From: Alphaproteobacteria bacterium
Lineage (GTDB): Bacteria > Pseudomonadota > Alphaproteobacteria > MPNO01
Reading direction: 5' to 3'
DNA: 64,000 bases
NCBI GenBank assembly: GCA_965202905.1
Contig: OZ241868.1
Span: 2,848,040 to 2,912,039, forward strand
The notes under the pieces: model-generated
Told to the model about the DNA's origin: nothing
The model's database searches: none
Seen by the model: the letters and a program-made list of their open reading frames with translations, nothing else
Program-made: the position numbers and the translations under genes
In this document: one piece after another, positions 25,920 to 32,868 of the stretch
How positions within the stretch are numbered: position 1 is the first letter of the stretch
Layout: the number at the start of each line of letters is the position of its first letter

Positions 25920-26087
25920 ATGAACGATGACGTGAAAAAGACCATCGAGACTGCTCCCACCGCGAAGGGCGGCAGCGCGGAGACGACACGCTGGACCCGG
26001 CCGGCGATCCACGAACTGGGCCGCGTTCAGAGGACGGAAAGCGGCACTACGGTTACGGAAGAAGAAAATTCGGGTTGCAATGAGTAA
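25920..26087 (+). CDS. Lasso peptide precursor 1 (55 aa; below ORF-track cutoff)
   Basis: GGAGGAGG RBS; MNDDVKKTIETAPTAKGGSAETTRWTRPAIHELGRVQRTE|SGTTVTEEENSGCNE; WxxP leader, Thr(-2), Glu9. Confidence 0.8.
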   Translation: MNDDVKKTIETAPTAKGGSAETTRWTRPAIHELGRVQRTESGTTVTEEENSGCNE

Positions 26088-26130
26088 TCATGACGCACGG
26101 CCGCCTTCAATCTGCGGATAGCGCGGCGTC

Positions 26131-26355
26131 GGGCCGGCGCTCGACGATCTGGTGTTGCGCCAGCGCTTGCGGGTGGGGCGCTACGACGAGACGCTCACCG
26201 ACATGAACGCCCGCCAGATCGCCCGGCTGGACGACGAACGGATCGCGCTGTTCAGCCGGGTGTTCCGGGAGCATCGGGAGGTGTTCGACTGTTTCGGCTA
26301 CGAGATCCGCGCCCCGTCGCAGCCGCCGCTCGACACGATCGGGGGCCGGATGTAA
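26131..26355 (+). pseudogene. Possible C-terminal remnant of a sulfotransferase-like gene
   Basis: PALDDLVLRQRL...TDMNARQIARLD...FDCFGY; protein-like codon usage with no N-terminal part; family call from recollection only. Confidence 0.4.
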
Positions 26356-26407
26356 GATCGCCGCGAACTTGGGGCCGCGCGGCGGCGGGAGCGGGGAGTA
26401 CGCCTCT

Positions 26408-26737
26408 TTGGACACTGATTTGGACACCGACTTGGGCATCGACTTGAGTTCCGTCGTCGAGCGCAACGACGACATCGTCTTCACCGACCTCGACGACGCC
26501 ATCGTGATGATGGACGCCGACATGGGCCGCTACTACGAGTTCGACAAGACGGCGGCCCGTATCTGGTCCCTGATCGAAACCCGCCCCACTGTGGCCGAGC
26601 TGTGCGCCGCGCTGGACGCGGAATACGACGACGTCGATTCCGACACCTGCCGCACCGACGTGCTCGGCTTCCTGGCGGAGGCCCGCGAGCTCGGGCTCAT
26701 CCGCGCGAGCCCGCGCCAGGACGGCGCCGACCGATGA
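26408..26737 (+). CDS. PqqD-family RiPP recognition element (lasso B1)
   Basis: DIVFTDLDDAIVMMD...GRYYEFDKTAARIWSLI...LDAEYD...DVLGFL; GGGGAG RBS before TTG. Confidence 0.88.
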   Translation: MDTDLDTDLGIDLSSVVERNDDIVFTDLDDAIVMMDADMGRYYEFDKTAARIWSLIETRPTVAELCAALDAEYDDVDSDTCRTDVLGFLAEARELGLIRASPRQDGADR

Positions 26738-26850
26738 CCGCCCGCCGAACGCGTCACGCATCCGATCTGTCCCCGCGTTACGGGGCGGGGTGGGCAGGGC
26801 GGTTTTAGCGACGCCCCGCTTGACGCGGCCGGCGACCGCGCATGAGGACT

Positions 26851-26879
26851 TTGCTAATCTGGAGCGCTGCCTGTATAGT
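26851..26879 (+). promoter_or_regulatory. Sigma70-type promoter of precursor 2
   Basis: TTGCTA-17 nt-TATAGT about 70 nt upstream of ATG 26948. Confidence 0.55.
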
Positions 26880-26947
26880 CTGGAGCGCCGCGCGATGGTG
26901 ACCGGACCGGCCGAAGCCGGGACCGAGGCGAGGAAGGGGAATGAGAC

Positions 26948-27157
26948 ATGAACGACGGCGTGAAGGAAGACTTTCAAAGATTACCCTCCCCGCCCCGCCC
27001 CGCGAGGGATAGCGGCGTGGAGCGGGCGCGCTGGACCCGGCCGATCGTCCGTGAACTGGGCTGCGTCCAGGAGACGGAAACCGGCTACCACCTGGCGCCG
27101 TTCGAGGGTAATTATACCAGCCCCACAGGCAGAGATACGGGAGAAACATTCTCATAG
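26948..27157 (+). CDS. Lasso peptide precursor 2 (69 aa)
   Basis: ...RWTRPIVRELGCVQETE|TGYHLAPFEGNYTSPTGRDTGETFS; Thr(-2), Glu9, C-terminal Ser. Confidence 0.85.
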   Translation: MNDGVKEDFQRLPSPPRPARDSGVERARWTRPIVRELGCVQETETGYHLAPFEGNYTSPTGRDTGETFS

Positions 27158-27296
27158 CGCACGCTCATGGCGCACGGCCGTCCTCCGTGGCGGGCGGTGT
27201 GTGCGCCCGGGTCAGTTGGGGCTTGCTTTTGCGCCGCGCCCGGGGATATGATCCGCGCGCTTCGCCCTTCCCGACAATACGGTTGACAGACGGCCC

Positions 27297-28226
27297 ATGA
27301 GTACCGACAGCTACACCGCCTACGGCCTGCACATCCGCTCCGAGCTTGCGCTGCACTTTCCGCCGGCCGATCCGGCGATGGCCGCCACGGCCGCCGATGT
27401 GACGGTTCGTCTCGGCGCGGCGCCCGCCGCCCTGCCTGCCCCGGCCGACAGCCTGGGGTTCTGGCAGACCGCCCCCGGCGCCTTTCTGCTCGACGTGCAG
27501 GGGGTCGCCCGCTATCTGGTCAGCGACGGTCGCGACATCCTGGTCGATCCTTCGCCGCAGGCGGGGGACCGGGATCTCGGGGTCTTTCTGGCGGGTTCGG
27601 CGATGGGGGCGCTGCTCCAGCAGCGGGGGGTGACGACCCTGCACGCCAGCGCCATCCGGACCGAGGGCGGCGCTGCGTTCTTCCTCGGCCATTCGGGGGC
27701 CGGCAAGTCGACGCTGGCGGCGGCCATGCAGCGGCGCGGCTACGCGCTGCTGGCCGATGACGTCACCGCGCTGTCGTGGGACACCGGCGGCCGACCGCAG
27801 GTGCTGTCGGCCGCCCCCGGGGTCAAGCTGTGGGCCGACGCGCTGAAAGCGCTGAGCCTCGACGGGCGTGAGCGTGAGCGGATACGGGACGGCATAGAGA
27901 AGTACCGGGTATCGCCGGGCGGTTTCTGCGCTGCGCCGCAGCGTCCTTGCGCCGCCTTCGTCCTGGGCGGGCACAACCGGGACGAGTTCGAGACGACGAC
28001 CCTGGGGCGCCGGGACGCCTGCCGTGTGCTGACGACGTTCACCTACCGCCCCCGTTATCGGCGCGGTCTGGGGCAGACGCTGTCGCATTTTCGTATGACG
28101 ACGGCGCTGGCGAAGCAGACGCCGACGATCCGGGTGACGCGGCCGTCGGACCTGTCGCGCATCGAGATGCTGGCGGACCGGATCGAGACGGCGCTGCAAG
28201 CGCCGGAGCAAGCGGTGGCGGGCTGA
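27297..28226 (+). CDS. HPr-kinase-like lasso peptide kinase
   Basis: LHASAI, Walker A GHSGAGKST, LADDV; context resembles paeninodin PadeK-type kinases. Confidence 0.85.
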   Translation: MSTDSYTAYGLHIRSELALHFPPADPAMAATAADVTVRLGAAPAALPAPADSLGFWQTAPGAFLLDVQGVARYLVSDGRDILVDPSPQAGDRDLGVFLAGSAMGALLQQRGVTTLHASAIRTEGGAAFFLGHSGAGKSTLAAAMQRRGYALLADDVTALSWDTGGRPQVLSAAPGVKLWADALKALSLDGRERERIRDGIEKYRVSPGGFCAAPQRPCAAFVLGGHNRDEFETTTLGRRDACRVLTTFTYRPRYRRGLGQTLSHFRMTTALAKQTPTIRVTRPSDLSRIEMLADRIETALQAPEQAVAG

Positions 28227-28236
28227 GGGTCGGGCG

Positions 28237-29112
28237 GTGTCGATCGTCTGGATCGCGGCCTATCCCAAATCCGGCAGCACGTGGCTGCGGACGATGCTGA
28301 CCAACTATCTGCGCCCGGACGACGAGCCGGCTTCGATCAACAATCTGTTGGGCGGCGTGGGCGGCAGCAGCCGGGCGACGTTCGACGATATGCTGGGGCT
28401 GGCCTCGTCCGACATGACGGAGGACGAGGTGCTGCGCTGTCGCCCGTTGTTCCAGGAGTTGCTGGCCGCGGAGCTTCCCGATCCCACCTTCTACAAGACG
28501 CACGAAGCTTGGCTGCGTGGTCCCGGCGGCGCGCCGGTGCATTCCCGCGCGGCGACGGCCGGCGCGGTCTATCTGGTGCGCAACCCGCTGGATGTGGCCG
28601 CGTCCTACGCGCACCACCTGAACCGGCCCGTCGACAAGACCATCGAATGGATGGACGATCCCGACGGCCATGAATGGGGCGGCAGGAAACGGATCACGCA
28701 AACCCTGCCGCAGCGCATGCTCACCTGGAGCGGGCATGTGTCGAGCTGGCTGGACCAGGAAGAGATCCCTCTGCACGTCGTGCGCTACGAGGACATGCTG
28801 GCGGCCACCGTCGACACGCTCGGCGGGATCGTCCGCTTCGCCGGGCTGGATGTCGACGCCGCCCGGCTGGGCCGGGCGGTGGACCACGCGTCGTTCGAGC
28901 GGTTGCAGGCGCAGGAGGCGGATTCCGGGTATCGGGAGAAGCAGGCGACGGCGCGGTCCTTCTTCCGCAGCGGGGTTGCGGGCGGCTGGCGCGAGTCGCT
29001 CGGCGAGGATCAGGTGCGGCGTCTGCTGGCTGCGCACGGGTCGGTCATGGAGCGGTTCGACTATCGGCGCGAGGCCGAGTCGTTTCTGTCGAACGGCGAG
29101 GGCCGCCGATGA
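28237..29112 (+). CDS. PAPS-dependent sulfotransferase
   Basis: 5'-PSB YPKSGSTW, KTH, 3'-PB VRNPLDVAAS, FFRSGVAGGW. Confidence 0.9.
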   Translation: MSIVWIAAYPKSGSTWLRTMLTNYLRPDDEPASINNLLGGVGGSSRATFDDMLGLASSDMTEDEVLRCRPLFQELLAAELPDPTFYKTHEAWLRGPGGAPVHSRAATAGAVYLVRNPLDVAASYAHHLNRPVDKTIEWMDDPDGHEWGGRKRITQTLPQRMLTWSGHVSSWLDQEEIPLHVVRYEDMLAATVDTLGGIVRFAGLDVDAARLGRAVDHASFERLQAQEADSGYREKQATARSFFRSGVAGGWRESLGEDQVRRLLAAHGSVMERFDYRREAESFLSNGEGRR

Positions 29113-30902
29113 TCTCGGGCTTTTACGCGCGGCGGGGCGGCGGGGCGGCGGCGGCCTCCCCGGCGGATGCCGGCCAGCTTCGGCCGGACCCGGCGGTCGG
29201 CCTGTCGGGTGCGGAGGACCTGCGGTCGGAGGACCGTGAGGCCGGGCTGACGGTGGTGGCGGATTGCCGCCTCGACGACCGGGCCGCCCTGGCGGGCGCG
29301 CTCGGCCTGCGCGACGTGGAGTCGCTGTCCGACAGCGCGCTCATCCTGGGGGCGTATGCGCGCTGGGGGCGCGACTGCCCGTCGCATCTGTTCGGCGACT
29401 ACGCGTTCGCGGTGTGGGATGCCCGCCGTCGCACCCTGTTTTGCGCCCGTGACCATGTCGGCGCGCGCGCCTTCCACTACGCGCTGACCGCCGAGCGGTT
29501 CGTCTTCGGGAGCGCCGTCGGGTCGGTGCTCGCCGCGCCCGGCGTGCCGGACGCGCTGGACGAGGAGGTGGTGGCGGGGCTGCTGTCGCCGAAGGTCCGG
29601 ATGCCGGTGGATCGCAGTTGTTTCCGGGCCGTGAAGCGGCTGTCGCCGGGCCATATGCTGGCCGTGGAGCCGGAGTCGTTGCGCATCGAGCGCTGGTGGC
29701 GGCCGGAGGCCGCACCGTCGGTCGCGCCGACCTCGGACGACGACCGTTCGCAGACCTTTCTCGCGCTGTACCGGCAGGCGGTGGGGGACTGCCTGCGCGG
29801 GGCTGCGGCGGGGTCGGTGGGGACGCATTTGAGCGGCGGTCTGGATTCGTCGAGCATCACGGTGCTTGCGGCCGAGGAGTTGCGCCGCCGGGGGGAGCCG
29901 CCGCCGACGGCGTTCGCGTGGCAGCCGGCGCCGCCGTCGGGGACGGCCGGGGAGGATGATGCGAACGCCGACGAGTATCGCCTCGTCGAGGCGACGGCGA
30001 GCCGGGCGGAGACGCCGTTGGTCTGGTGCGCGCCCACCGGGGCCGATGTGGAAGCGTGGCTGCGCCAGGACGGGGCACGGGAGTGCAGCAGCGATACGCT
30101 GCTGCACGAGATGTCGGTCCAGCGGGCTGCGGCGGCGCGCGGGGTGCGTCGGATACTCTCGGGCTGGGGTGGCGATGAATGCGCGTCCTACGGCGGTCGC
30201 GGCTATTACCAGGAACTGCTGCTCGGCGGTCGCTTCATCCGGCTGTGGCGGGCGCTTCGCGCGCGCCGGTCTTCTGCGAAGAACGCCCTGTCGGCGGTCG
30301 TTCTGCCCTTGCTGCCGTTCGGGATGGAACTCGCCGTCCGTCGCGCTTTGGATTCGGAGCGCACCGCGCCGCCTCCGCAGCGCTCTTTCGCGCATCCGGA
30401 TCTCGCGCGTCGGTTCAAGCTGCGCCAGCCCGACCTCGGGACGAGAGGCGTTCGGCAGAGGCAGTGTAGCCTGATCGGGCAGGGTCATCTGTGCGAGCGC
30501 ATGGAAGGTTGGGCGCTGGAGGGGTCGCGTCGCGGCATCGAGTACGGCTACCCGCTATTGGACCGTCGTCTGATGGAGTTCGTCCTGGGGCTGCCGCCGG
30601 AGCAGTTTCGTCAGGGGCGCTGGAGCCGCTGGGTGATGCGCCACGCCCTTCGCACGGTGCTGCCGCCGGAGGTGTGCTGGTACACCGACAAGCGTGATCC
30701 GGTGCGTTTCGCGGGTTTTCGGGGGAGCGTGATCGAGACGCTGCCGGTGCTCCACCGCGAGTTGGCCGGTCGCGCGGCGGCGCCCTCGCGGGCGCGCTAT
30801 GTCGACATGCCGCATTTGCTGACCTGCCTGGAGGATGGCTGGCCGGCCGGGGAACCCTTTGCCTACCGGGCGCTCACGGCGATGCGGTTTCTCGACTTCT
30901 GA
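29109..30902 (+). CDS. Asparagine-synthetase-like lasso cyclase (C protein)
   Basis: LSGGLDSSS, SGWGGDE, YPLLDRRL; lacks the N-terminal catalytic Cys of glutamine-dependent AsnB; overlaps the sulfotransferase stop. Confidence 0.85.
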   Translation: MISGFYARRGGGAAAASPADAGQLRPDPAVGLSGAEDLRSEDREAGLTVVADCRLDDRAALAGALGLRDVESLSDSALILGAYARWGRDCPSHLFGDYAFAVWDARRRTLFCARDHVGARAFHYALTAERFVFGSAVGSVLAAPGVPDALDEEVVAGLLSPKVRMPVDRSCFRAVKRLSPGHMLAVEPESLRIERWWRPEAAPSVAPTSDDDRSQTFLALYRQAVGDCLRGAAAGSVGTHLSGGLDSSSITVLAAEELRRRGEPPPTAFAWQPAPPSGTAGEDDANADEYRLVEATASRAETPLVWCAPTGADVEAWLRQDGARECSSDTLLHEMSVQRAAAARGVRRILSGWGGDECASYGGRGYYQELLLGGRFIRLWRALRARRSSAKNALSAVVLPLLPFGMELAVRRALDSERTAPPPQRSFAHPDLARRFKLRQPDLGTRGVRQRQCSLIGQGHLCERMEGWALEGSRRGIEYGYPLLDRRLMEFVLGLPPEQFRQGRWSRWVMRHALRTVLPPEVCWYTDKRDPVRFAGFRGSVIETLPVLHRELAGRAAAPSRARYVDMPHLLTCLEDGWPAGEPFAYRALTAMRFLDF

Positions 30903-31162
30903 GGCTTTCCATTCCCTCTGAAGTTGAAGTCGGTCGGGCGGGCGTTGGGCAGGATGAGACCGTGCGCCGACCGTGCGCCGGATGCGGATCGTCGAGAAAC
31001 GAAAGTCGCTTTCGGTCCGGAGCGGCGGACGCTTCGCCGCCGCTCCATTCCGGGCCGCCCGGTGTTCGGGGCGCGGCGCCGCGCCGACGGAAGCAGGCTG
31101 CAACGCCACGCCTGACCGGTTGCGGACGGGCGCCGCCCGGTCGGCTGTACGGCGAATTCATG

Positions 31163-31191
31163 TTGACCGGCAGGCCGCCGGTAAGTACGAT
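31163..31191 (+). promoter_or_regulatory. Sigma70-type promoter (cassette copy B) upstream of precursor 3
   Basis: TTGACC-17 nt-TACGAT; RBS GGGAG before ATG 31282. Confidence 0.6.
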
Positions 31192-31281
31192 CGGCGCGTG
31201 TCGAAGGTGGATCGCTCACAGGCGGCCGACGGCGCGATACGGCGCGACAGCGCCCGACTCTTGAACTCAGGGAGTGAAAAC

Positions 31282-31451
31282 ATGACCAGCCATCGAGACG
31301 CCCTTGTACCCCCCCCCCCCCGCAGGATGAGGCGCGGGAACGCTGGACCCGGCCGATGATCCGCGAACTGGGCCGCGTCCAGAGGACGCATAGCGGCTCT
31401 GGCACTGGTGTAGTTGAGAATAGCGAATATTTCAACATCGACGCGTCGTGA
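31282..31451 (+). pseudogene. Lasso peptide precursor 3, frameshifted at a poly-C tract
   Basis: MTSHRDALV-[C13]-QDEARERWTRPMIRELGRVQRTH|SGSGTGVVENSEYFNIDAS; in frame only with C11 or C14. Confidence 0.8.
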
Positions 31452-31758
31452 CGCACGGCCGCCGTCACTCTGCGGAGAGCGCGGCGCCGGGGCTTGGCGC
31501 TACGGGTTCTACGCCGGACAGGCGTTGGACGCCGATGCCCTGATGGCCCTCAACCGACGGATCGACGCCTTTGCCGATGCGTTCGATGTCTTCAGACCCC
31601 ACTAGGCCCTCGGCAGACATCCCCCCGAGAGTATTTCGACCGACGCGCAGCCGACCGGAACCCTCCCGCCTCAATAATCCTGAACCCGGACGCCCCCCTT
31701 TGACTGCGGCTCACGCTGTCTTATTATGGCGCGAATCGAAAGGGAGGGCCGGCCGCTC

Positions 31759-32868
31759 GTGCAGCAAATCGATTACGCATCCAGCGCTTGTCCGGTGCGC
31801 GAGGATTTGATCGCCGCCCAGCGCACGGCGTGGCGGCGCCTTGCCGGGCCGGGGGCCTTCCTCGACGGTGCGCGCCGCGTGGCGGTCGCCCGCGAGGTGC
31901 GCAACGCGCCGTCCTGCGCGTTGTGCCGGCGCCGAAAGGAGGCGCTCTCGCCGTTTGCCGTGGACGGCGCCCATGACGGCCTGGGCGAGCTCGGCGAGAC
32001 CGAAATCGACGCCATCCACCGGATCGTCACCGATCCCGGCCGGCTCAGCCGCGAGTGGGTCGAGGGCCTGCTCGCCGCCGGGCTCGACGACCGGGAATAC
32101 ATCGAGATCGTCAGCGTCATCTGTGTCGTGACGGTCAACGACACCTTCCGCCGCGCGCTCGACCTGCCGCCGTTCGAACTGCCGGAGCCGGCCGCGGGCG
32201 CGCCGTCGGGCTATAGCGCGCCGGGCGCCAAGGCACATGACGGCTGGATCCGCTTGCTCGTTCCGGAGGATGTCGTCCCCGGCGACGGCGCGGTTTACAG
32301 CACGCTTGCGGTCTCGCCGGTGGTCAAGGCGCTGTCGCTGGTCCCCGAGGCCAAGCGGCATTACTGGGACCTCGCCGAGACGATGTACCTGCCCGGCGAA
32401 GAGATGCCCAACTTCGCAACCGGGATCAGGGCCATCGACCGTGTGCAGATGGAGATCCTCGCCACGAGAGTCTCCGCGCTCCATCAATGCGTCTACTGAA
32501 CCGGCTCCCATGCATTCATGCTCCGTGAGAGCATCCGGACTTCCGGGACCGCGTTCGATCTGCGCGCCGCGATGGGCCGGGCGCGCGGCGACGGCGGGGT
32601 CGAGAGCGGCCAGAACCTCGCCGACTTCGCCGAGGCGATCACGCTGCAAGACCGCGCCCGGACGGCCGGGCTACGCGATGTCCTGGCGCGCGAGCTGGGG
32701 GTGGAAGCCATGGTCGACGCCGCCGCTGTCGCTTCGGTGTTCCACGGCTTTGTCCGGGTCGCGGACTCGACGGGCGCGCCGCCGGCGGGCGCTTCGGGCG
32801 GCCGGGTGACGATGGAGTTCCGTGAGGAGCTTGGGATCAACGCGTTCTTCGGCGCCGCGCACCGCTAG
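31759..32868 (+). CDS. AhpD-like alkylhydroperoxidase-related selenoprotein (CxxU, UGA at 32497-32499)
   Basis: [24 protein letters not shown] continues in frame into ORF 32518..32868; hairpin ATGCTC-CGTGA-GAGCAT downstream. Confidence 0.82.

Follow-up and report, generated by a model that had tools for sequence, protein, structure and literature searches.

A candidate lasso peptide locus was analyzed at positions 25920–31451 (+ strand) of a 64,000-nucleotide stretch of an alphaproteobacterial genome (Alphaproteobacteria bacterium, lineage MPNO01; assembly GCA_965202905.1, contig OZ241868.1, positions 2,848,040 to 2,912,039), referred to here at its full length as the window. The locus is probably a real lasso cluster of the paeninodin type, in which the B1 and B2 functions are split over two genes, but a paralogous copy that is no longer complete, and it carries a conserved pair of kinase (K) and sulfotransferase (ST) genes. 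It is one of three partial paralogous loci serving about 50 dispersed precursor genes. The genome consists of one contig (3,868,867 bases, 67.7% G+C).

Seven open reading frames (ORFs) were found, all on the + strand and in the order A1, B1, A2, K, ST, C, A3. This is the order given in the original prediction, whose start at 25920 was also accurate, although its end at 31605 overshot the A3 stop codon by about 150 bases. A1 (25920–26087, 55 amino acids) and A2 (26948–27157, 69 amino acids) encode precursor peptides, and B1 (26369–26737, start codon uncertain) encodes a PqqD-type recognition element (RRE) for peptides that are ribosomally synthesized and modified after translation (RiPPs). K (27297–28226, 309 amino acids) is an HPr-kinase-like lasso precursor kinase, ST (28237–29112, 291 amino acids) a sulfotransferase of the 3′-phosphoadenosine-5′-phosphosulfate (PAPS) type, C (29109–30902, 597 amino acids) a lasso cyclase, and A3 (leader/core reading frame at 31278–31451) a third precursor. 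Alignment to intact copies elsewhere in the genome revealed two gene remnants between these ORFs, the 3′ end of a second sulfotransferase of the PF13469 type (ST2; 26125–26319) and a piece of a B2 leader peptidase (31023–31145). Only 10 bases separate K from ST, and the ST stop is overlapped by the C start (ATGA, 4 bases), so that K, ST and C look like one translationally coupled unit. Five promoter-like hits, consensus matches only, were obtained where 0.4 would be expected, and three lie upstream of B1, A2 and A3. Folding of three 76-base stretches gave no sign of hairpins after the precursor stop codons (z-scores −0.2 to −0.5).

Profile searches assigned B1 to the PqqD family (PF05402, E-value 7.5e-20, 71.5 bits against a cut-off of 23.4), with a further match to lasso_PqqD_Bac (2.3e-15); the NCBIfam lasso PqqD models all stayed below their own cut-offs. 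The C protein matched Asn_synthase (PF00733, 2.1e-27) and GATase_7. Its best NCBIfam model was the lasso cyclase NF033535 (1.8e-88, 297.8 bits, cut-off 525), with the asparagine synthase model TIGR01536 far behind (1.1e-42, 146.8 bits), and its N-terminus, MISGFY, is devoid of the Cys2 nucleophile of glutamine-hydrolyzing asparagine synthases. ST matched Sulfotransfer_1 (PF00685, 1e-23, 84.5 bits against a cut-off of 22) and retained an intact 5′-phosphosulfate-binding (5′-PSB) loop (PKSGST, residues 10–15) and catalytic His (KTH, 87–89), together with the 3′-phosphate-binding (3′-PB) motif (RNPLDVAAS, 115–123) and GVAGGWR at 246. The original prediction of a PqqD protein, a sulfotransferase and an AsnB-like lasso cyclase was borne out, ST being a bona fide sulfotransferase, while that of an HPr-like kinase held in its motif and less well in its profiles. 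Family matches of K were weak and limited to the P-loop (Hpr_kinase_C, 8.5e-5; TIGR04352, HprK_rel_A, 1.2e-8), and among solved structures only P-loop matches to PEPCK and HPr kinase were found. The lasso-kinase motif is nevertheless complete (H116-x14-G131-x2-G134-x-G136-K137-S138-x15-D154-D155), and PMC10368454 describes this motif as one that BsfK and other lasso kinases require.

The window locus lacks an intact B2. Its wreck corresponds to 41 residues (92–132 of 152, 61% identical), contains an internal stop and has lost the N-terminal part. Within the whole genome, PF13471 (B2) matched once, at G000:C1:2528259–2528573 (G000:C1 being the genome contig), 345 kb upstream of the window locus, and this ORF is a B2 according to NF033537 (83.9 bits against a cut-off of 33). 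Because the locus is without its own B2, the window precursors must mature with a B2 acting in trans. Co-expression with a B2 peptidase had been foreseen, but the wreck had gone unnoticed and the locus is not self-sufficient.

The leader motif, with WTRP and Thr(−2), is present in all three window precursors, and the shared leader and the three cores read exactly as first reported. The A1 core has 15 amino acids with Glu at positions 7, 8 and 9 and a C-terminal Glu, and its in-frame ATG is located 72 bases 5′ of the Trp codon. The A2 core has 25 amino acids (Glu9, Tyr3, Tyr12 and a C-terminal Ser), and that of A3 has 19 (Glu9, Tyr13, Phe14 and a C-terminal Ser), which agrees with the earlier statement that Glu occupies core position 9 in all three and that two of them end in Ser. 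The claim of a third precursor held in part, as the leader and core of A3 are present in one frame (31323–31451) but its own start codon is in another. The core frame opens after a stop at 31275, and the only ATG, GTG or TTG that follows is an internal ATG at 31356, the Met within the WTRP-M-IRELG motif. An ATG at 31282 with a GGGAG ribosome-binding site begins the N-terminal frame (31282–31359, stop at 31357–31359) ahead of a run of 13 C encoding poly-Pro (31309–31321), and this C13 tract makes A3 untranslatable from its own start codon as assembled. A length of C11 or C14 at 31309 would join the two frames.

The leader motif was detected at 53 precursor-like loci scattered between 0.84 and 3.68 Mb, a recurrence far beyond chance. 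When cores were defined by cutting the leader after Thr(−2)-x, 51 of the 53 loci combined Thr(−2) with Glu or Asp at core position 9 (Glu in 49), 51 ended in Ser, and 45 distinct cores were counted. Gly2 occurred in 42 of 53 cores, Tyr within positions 10–16 in 38, and an aromatic residue or His within that stretch in 48, giving a skeleton of x-G-x6-E9-x2-3-Y-(Y/F)...S. A ring of nine residues and a kinase site at the C-terminal Ser, both proposed originally, fit 51 of the 53 members. Prochlorosins, for which one lanthipeptide synthetase acts on dozens of dispersed precursors, belong to another RiPP class but resemble the present family in their conserved leader, hypervariable cores and precursor genes far from shared enzymes; we know of no homopolymer tracts in their precursors.

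Outside this genome the family was scarcely detected. When an in-frame member of the family was used as query in a word-based search, 5.8 billion proteins yielded eight hits, six of them from this genome and two short ones from other contigs, and two pattern scans of metagenome contigs yielded no further members. A degenerate leader pattern, run on genome contigs, gave one match, inside a Ruegeria membrane protein, which was discarded as chance. Within the genome, five near-identical precursors were solitary and far from enzyme genes (G000:C1 1652063, 2808495, 3060186, 3093988 and 3676437). Four of them shared the same 17-amino-acid core and the fifth differed by one substitution; they are embedded in a repeat of about 0.6–1.3 kb, with copies 84–94% identical, in which no second clear gene was seen.

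Tracts like the C13 of A3 recur, at varying length, in about half of the family. The genome contained 36 C/G runs of at least 10 bases, and 28 of them fell within precursor-like genes or decayed copies of these, in the N-terminal part that encodes the leader; 26 of these belonged to the 53 motif-bearing loci, with lengths of C10–C30. The longest, G30 at 2264027–2264056 (G000:C1), encodes ten consecutive CCC prolines in frame. Proline codons in the long ORFs of this genome are mostly CCG (65.6%, against 30.4% CCC), and codon usage would therefore not produce runs of 4–10 pure CCC. The remaining eight long C/G runs were outside precursors, for example at 962333 (C15) and 2402489 (G13).

Frame was judged relative to the N-terminal start motif of the family. 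Among the 26 loci with C10–C30, 7 were in frame, 18 out of frame (16 by script, 2 by eye) and one unassigned, whereas the 27 loci with shorter tracts comprised 25 in frame (24 by script, 1 by eye), one out of frame and one without a start codon. The tract is the fastest-changing site of these precursor genes. One pair of paralogues differed as C16 versus C12 with flanks identical at 60 of 60 bases upstream and 151 of 152 downstream, another as C12 versus C19 with 162 of 162 downstream bases identical, and further pairs as C17 versus C18 and, between the window and the second locus described below, C13 versus C16. The poly-G/C contingency loci of Neisseria, Haemophilus and Campylobacter similarly place a long homopolymer between the start codon and the functional part, have about two-thirds of alleles out of frame and change in the tract far faster than in the flanks, but their products are surface structures or restriction systems, and the bacteria are pathogens adapted to a host. 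The homopolymer of at least 9 bases, within the reading frame and upstream of the functional part, by which such loci are recognized was found here in A3 (C13) and at 26 of the 53 loci (C10–C30).

The poly-C tracts may be phase-variation switches, and we read them as likely of the slipped-strand kind: slippage in the poly-Pro leader would decide whether a given precursor gene is on or off, and slippage during transcription might blur these states further. Tentatively, and as something short of an even chance, the genome may thus hold a phase-variable combinatorial library of about 50 phosphorylated, possibly sulfated lasso peptides, with 26 hypermutable tracts switching precursors randomly on and off. 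They would be served by a dispersed set of three cyclases, two kinases, two sulfotransferases plus a third of the other type, two RREs, one peptidase and one exporter. Literature searches returned no paper tying lasso peptides or RiPPs to phase variation or homopolymeric tracts.

The alternative that survives best is that the out-of-frame tracts, the C13 of A3 included, are homopolymer errors of the assembly and that the cell carries every precursor gene intact. With the genome assembled as one 3.87-Mb contig, long reads are probable, and runs of 13–30 C are hard on every platform. A uniform one-base undercount fails to explain the frames, because the out-of-frame lengths (12, 13, 15, 16, 17, 18 and 19) require corrections in both directions; the proportion of 18 out of 26 moreover equals the two-thirds that would arise without any constraint of frame on tract length, and tracts with near-identical flanks differ by as much as 4 and 7 bases. 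Sequencing runs gave hints on either side, as contigs only, in which paralogues can cross-map at 95% likeness. At 31309, the contig of one RNA-library run (X5) was two bases shorter, which gives the in-frame C11 (depth 24.4 of 129.8), while those of X1 and X11 showed no length difference, though paralogues may be mixed in. In A2, an interrupted C-rich stretch near 26988 was 6 bases shorter in the contig of X4 and 5 in those of X5 and X11. We consider assembly error less likely than not, but take it seriously as an explanation of individual frames.

Two further loci complement that of the window. Locus 2 (L002), 345 kb away, aligned with window positions 27272–31452 at 97.2% identity over 4.2 kb and has the order Asp/Asn β-hydroxylase-like gene, ST2 (PF13469), K, ST, C, precursors, B2 and more precursors. 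It has no B1. Locus 3 (L018) contained an ABC exporter, an NTP_transf_5 nucleotidyltransferase, B1 and C. Searching the genome with tblastn gave three copies of C (98.0–98.5% protein identity), two of ST (91.8%), two of K plus a 29-residue stub, and two of B1 (window and locus 3, 92% identity). The window locus kept B1 and the whole of A2 but lost B2, the hydroxylase and most of ST2, whose remnant corresponds to residues 225–289 of the intact 300-amino-acid copy in locus 2 (91% identical). In locus 2, conversely, B2, ST2 and the hydroxylase are preserved, while B1 is gone and A2 is missing its 5′ half. The exact locus-2 junction also appeared in a contig of run X11, which passes from 26316 to 27050 and skips 733 bases. 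The hydroxylase (PF05118; L002 3460–4332) and ST2 (L002 4292–5194), both upstream of K in locus 2, make further tailoring of the family possible, such as hydroxylation or a second sulfation; ST2 itself gave no match among solved structures. Among the precursor genes near locus 2, three copies of a predicted membrane protein of about 116 amino acids without Pfam match were also seen (L002 16539–16889; G000:C1 2543334–2543687 and 2544454–2544807; all on the − strand), which could be an immunity or export helper.

The pairing of K with ST extends well beyond this genome. Fifteen loci with ST homologues (37–56% identity) were collected from species-representative genomes and spanned Binatia, Gammaproteobacteria, Cyanobacteria, Chloroflexota, Bacteroidota and several alphaproteobacterial families. 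K was directly upstream of ST in 13 of the 15, and in 14 one or more other lasso genes (K, B1, B2 or C) were nearby, the exception being a 6-kb contig. Other neighbors were less constant: B1 followed ST within about 650 bases in 7 of 15, the hydroxylase was present in 4, and ST2 in one (L010). A fixed K–ST pair amid otherwise shuffled genes suggests that the two act as a module on the same substrate. Among 40 relatives, a single genome (G013) had an ST, 51% identical, and there N, B2, B1, C, K, ST and D sit close together as a complete cluster, while two genomes of the same genus, one of them only 64% complete, gave no ST match. Regular expressions and ORF listing provided tentative precursor candidates in six related loci (L006, L007, L010, L013, L016 and L027), whereas L003 and L004 yielded no convincing ones.

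Sulfation of the lasso peptides by ST is plausible. The nearest solved relatives of ST were Teg12 (5e-10), Teg14 and StaL, followed by cytosolic SULT1 enzymes (E-values over the whole set 5e-10 to 1e-5), all sharing its 5′-PSB, catalytic His and 3′-PB motifs. The first three sulfate phenolic hydroxyls of glycopeptide antibiotics, and SULT1 enzymes are phenol sulfotransferases; they act on non-ribosomal glycopeptide aglycones or small phenols, whereas the putative substrate of ST is a leader-bound ribosomal peptide. Given that these relatives sulfate phenols and that the cores of this genome offer Tyr in an acidic context, Tyr12/13 is our favored guess for the acceptor, although Ser, Thr or even the phosphate installed by K may serve instead.

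Comparison of the two ST copies (window 28237–29112; L002 6452–7327) revealed 24 residue differences, all but four within residues 36–165. With 25.5 non-synonymous against 4.5 synonymous changes, the ratio of their rates (dN/dS) was about 1.9, from small numbers. The ST copies are 91.8% identical, and the flanking K and C copies 98–99%. For K the ratio was about 1, on only 7 changes, and for C and B1 it was 0.35–0.55.

Several points weigh against a genuine lasso cluster whose ST modifies its peptides. The lasso assignment is known here from genes alone, C and B1 scored under the NCBIfam lasso cut-offs, K was under every curated family cut-off, and A1 does not end in Ser. The tentative precursors of three related ST loci (L006, L007 and L013) are without Tyr, which indicates that Tyr is not a universal acceptor of ST. 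The Tyr-(Phe/Tyr) pair located 3–4 residues past the ring may, moreover, simply be a steric plug by analogy with astexin-type peptides, which place their plugs at the corresponding position, so the conserved Tyr does not by itself indicate sulfation. The dN/dS of ST and K may reflect relaxed constraint equally as well as a diverging acceptor specificity, and two gene wrecks and a frameshifted precursor within one locus point to possible decay.

These signs of decay would all be accounted for if the window locus were a dead duplicate, its K, ST, C and precursors being decaying recent copies and the working pathway residing in loci 2 and 3; at about 97% DNA identity, the duplication is too recent for intact ORFs to carry much weight. 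Such a division of labor sits poorly, however, with the absence of B1 from locus 2, which leaves this gene to the window locus and locus 3, and with decay that is complementary between the window locus and locus 2. The dN/dS of C and B1 stayed well below that of ST, the catalytic motifs of K and ST are all intact, and RNA-library contigs cover the window locus, which is weak evidence of use. We regard a dead duplicate as improbable and retain the incomplete but genuine paralogous cluster. That ST merely travels with the cluster and acts on another metabolite, on a cell-surface molecule or in self-protection is quite improbable: sulfated lasso peptides are absent from the literature searched and no acceptor other than Ser/Thr is conserved across the tentative precursors of related loci, but K–ST adjacency persists across phyla while other genes are shuffled, ST overlaps C, ST homologues retrieved by sequence adjoin lasso genes almost without exception, and the nearest solved relatives of ST act on peptide antibiotics.

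For the preferred reading of a paeninodin-type cluster distributed over three loci, we infer the following chemical steps. B1 would bind the WTRP motif in the leader of the linear precursor. K would then phosphorylate a hydroxyl, by analogy that of the C-terminal Ser carried by A2, A3 and nearly all family members, and ST would sulfate a core hydroxyl as a PAPS-dependent O-sulfotransferase. Cleavage after Thr(−2)-x would fall to B2, which locus 2 would provide in trans at a distance of 345 kb, whereupon C would join the new N-terminus to Glu9 to close the nine-residue ring. Export would proceed via the ABC transporter of locus 3.

The combination of kinase and sulfotransferase in lasso clusters has itself been in print since 2014. 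HPr kinase and sulfotransferase genes of unclear role are mentioned for some clusters in the pertinent part of Letzel et al. (2014; PMC4289311). A 2021 review (PMC8498205), citing Zhu et al. (2016), describes Firmicutes clusters that begin with a putative sulfotransferase gene, as well as proteobacterial kinase clusters whose kinases polyphosphorylate the C-terminal Ser. The Gram-positive clusters noted for both genes share the accessory pair with the window locus but, as cited, place the sulfotransferase first, unlike the window locus and 13 of its 15 relatives, where the kinase precedes the sulfotransferase; proteobacterial kinase–sulfotransferase clusters may also be listed in the Zhu et al. 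(2016) JBC paper or in the RODEO paper. The original prediction knew of no characterized sulfated lasso peptide, and our literature searches likewise found none. No word beginning with "sulf" occurs in a 2022 review on unusual modifications of lasso peptides, and the modification list in a 2026 review includes none involving sulfate.

Among known systems, the paeninodin type (PadeK, ThcoK, and SyanK of Sphingobium yanoikuyae) is closest, with split B1 and B2, an HPr-kinase-like kinase with the same catalytic motif, precursors ending in Ser, and a kinase that works on the linear precursor (in the parts concerned of PMC8498205 and PMC9266682). Lasso kinases in general are described there and in PMC10368454 as acting on linear precursors, with B1 speeding them. 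The present system differs by a PF00685 sulfotransferase coupled to kinase and cyclase, and by three enzyme loci and some 50 dispersed precursors that have so far been seen as genes only. Pseudomycoidin and Bsf clusters also combine a kinase with NTP_transf_5, which here adjoins the exporter of locus 3, and in Bsf B1 aids the kinase (PMC10368454, in the section concerned). In those clusters, however, the phosphate receives a hexose from the nucleotidyltransferase or Ser3 is the target of the kinase, and a sulfotransferase is lacking.

The stretch 30900–31800 was found in 12 runs of four studies, five of them metatranscriptomes, labeled as sponge or marine metagenome and "organism A". With the locus divided into 30 bins, contigs of two RNA runs from different studies covered 24 and 27 of them, which is weak evidence of transcription given that DNA carry-over is possible. 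Contig depth was much higher at A3 than at the enzyme genes, but was set aside as a measure of expression since contig depth sums paralogues.

Directly downstream of the locus, a selenoprotein candidate was observed at window positions 31726–32868 (+), with a TGA at 32497–32499 (...CVY-U-TG...) beyond which the frame continues. Read with TGA as selenocysteine, the 380-amino-acid product matched NF041238, an alkylhydroperoxidase-related (seleno)protein family, with 410.4 bits over profile positions 1–355 of 357; as a TGA-truncated ORF its score dropped to 276 bits.

The window locus and its cross-phylum relatives with a fixed order of kinase and then sulfotransferase provide a concrete set of genes for testing O-sulfation of lasso peptides. 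What is new here is the putative sulfation, the kinase–sulfotransferase module fixed across phyla and, above all, the large dispersed family of poly-C precursors. If the tracts are assembly errors, this is still an unusually large lasso precursor family whose enzymes are split over three complementary, partly decayed loci. If they do switch, we know of no earlier case in which precursors of a natural product are run as contingency loci, and the family would be the lasso equivalent of prochlorosin-type combinatorial biosynthesis. Such a library, if real, may matter for life in a host, considering the sponge and marine metagenome runs in which part of the locus was found.

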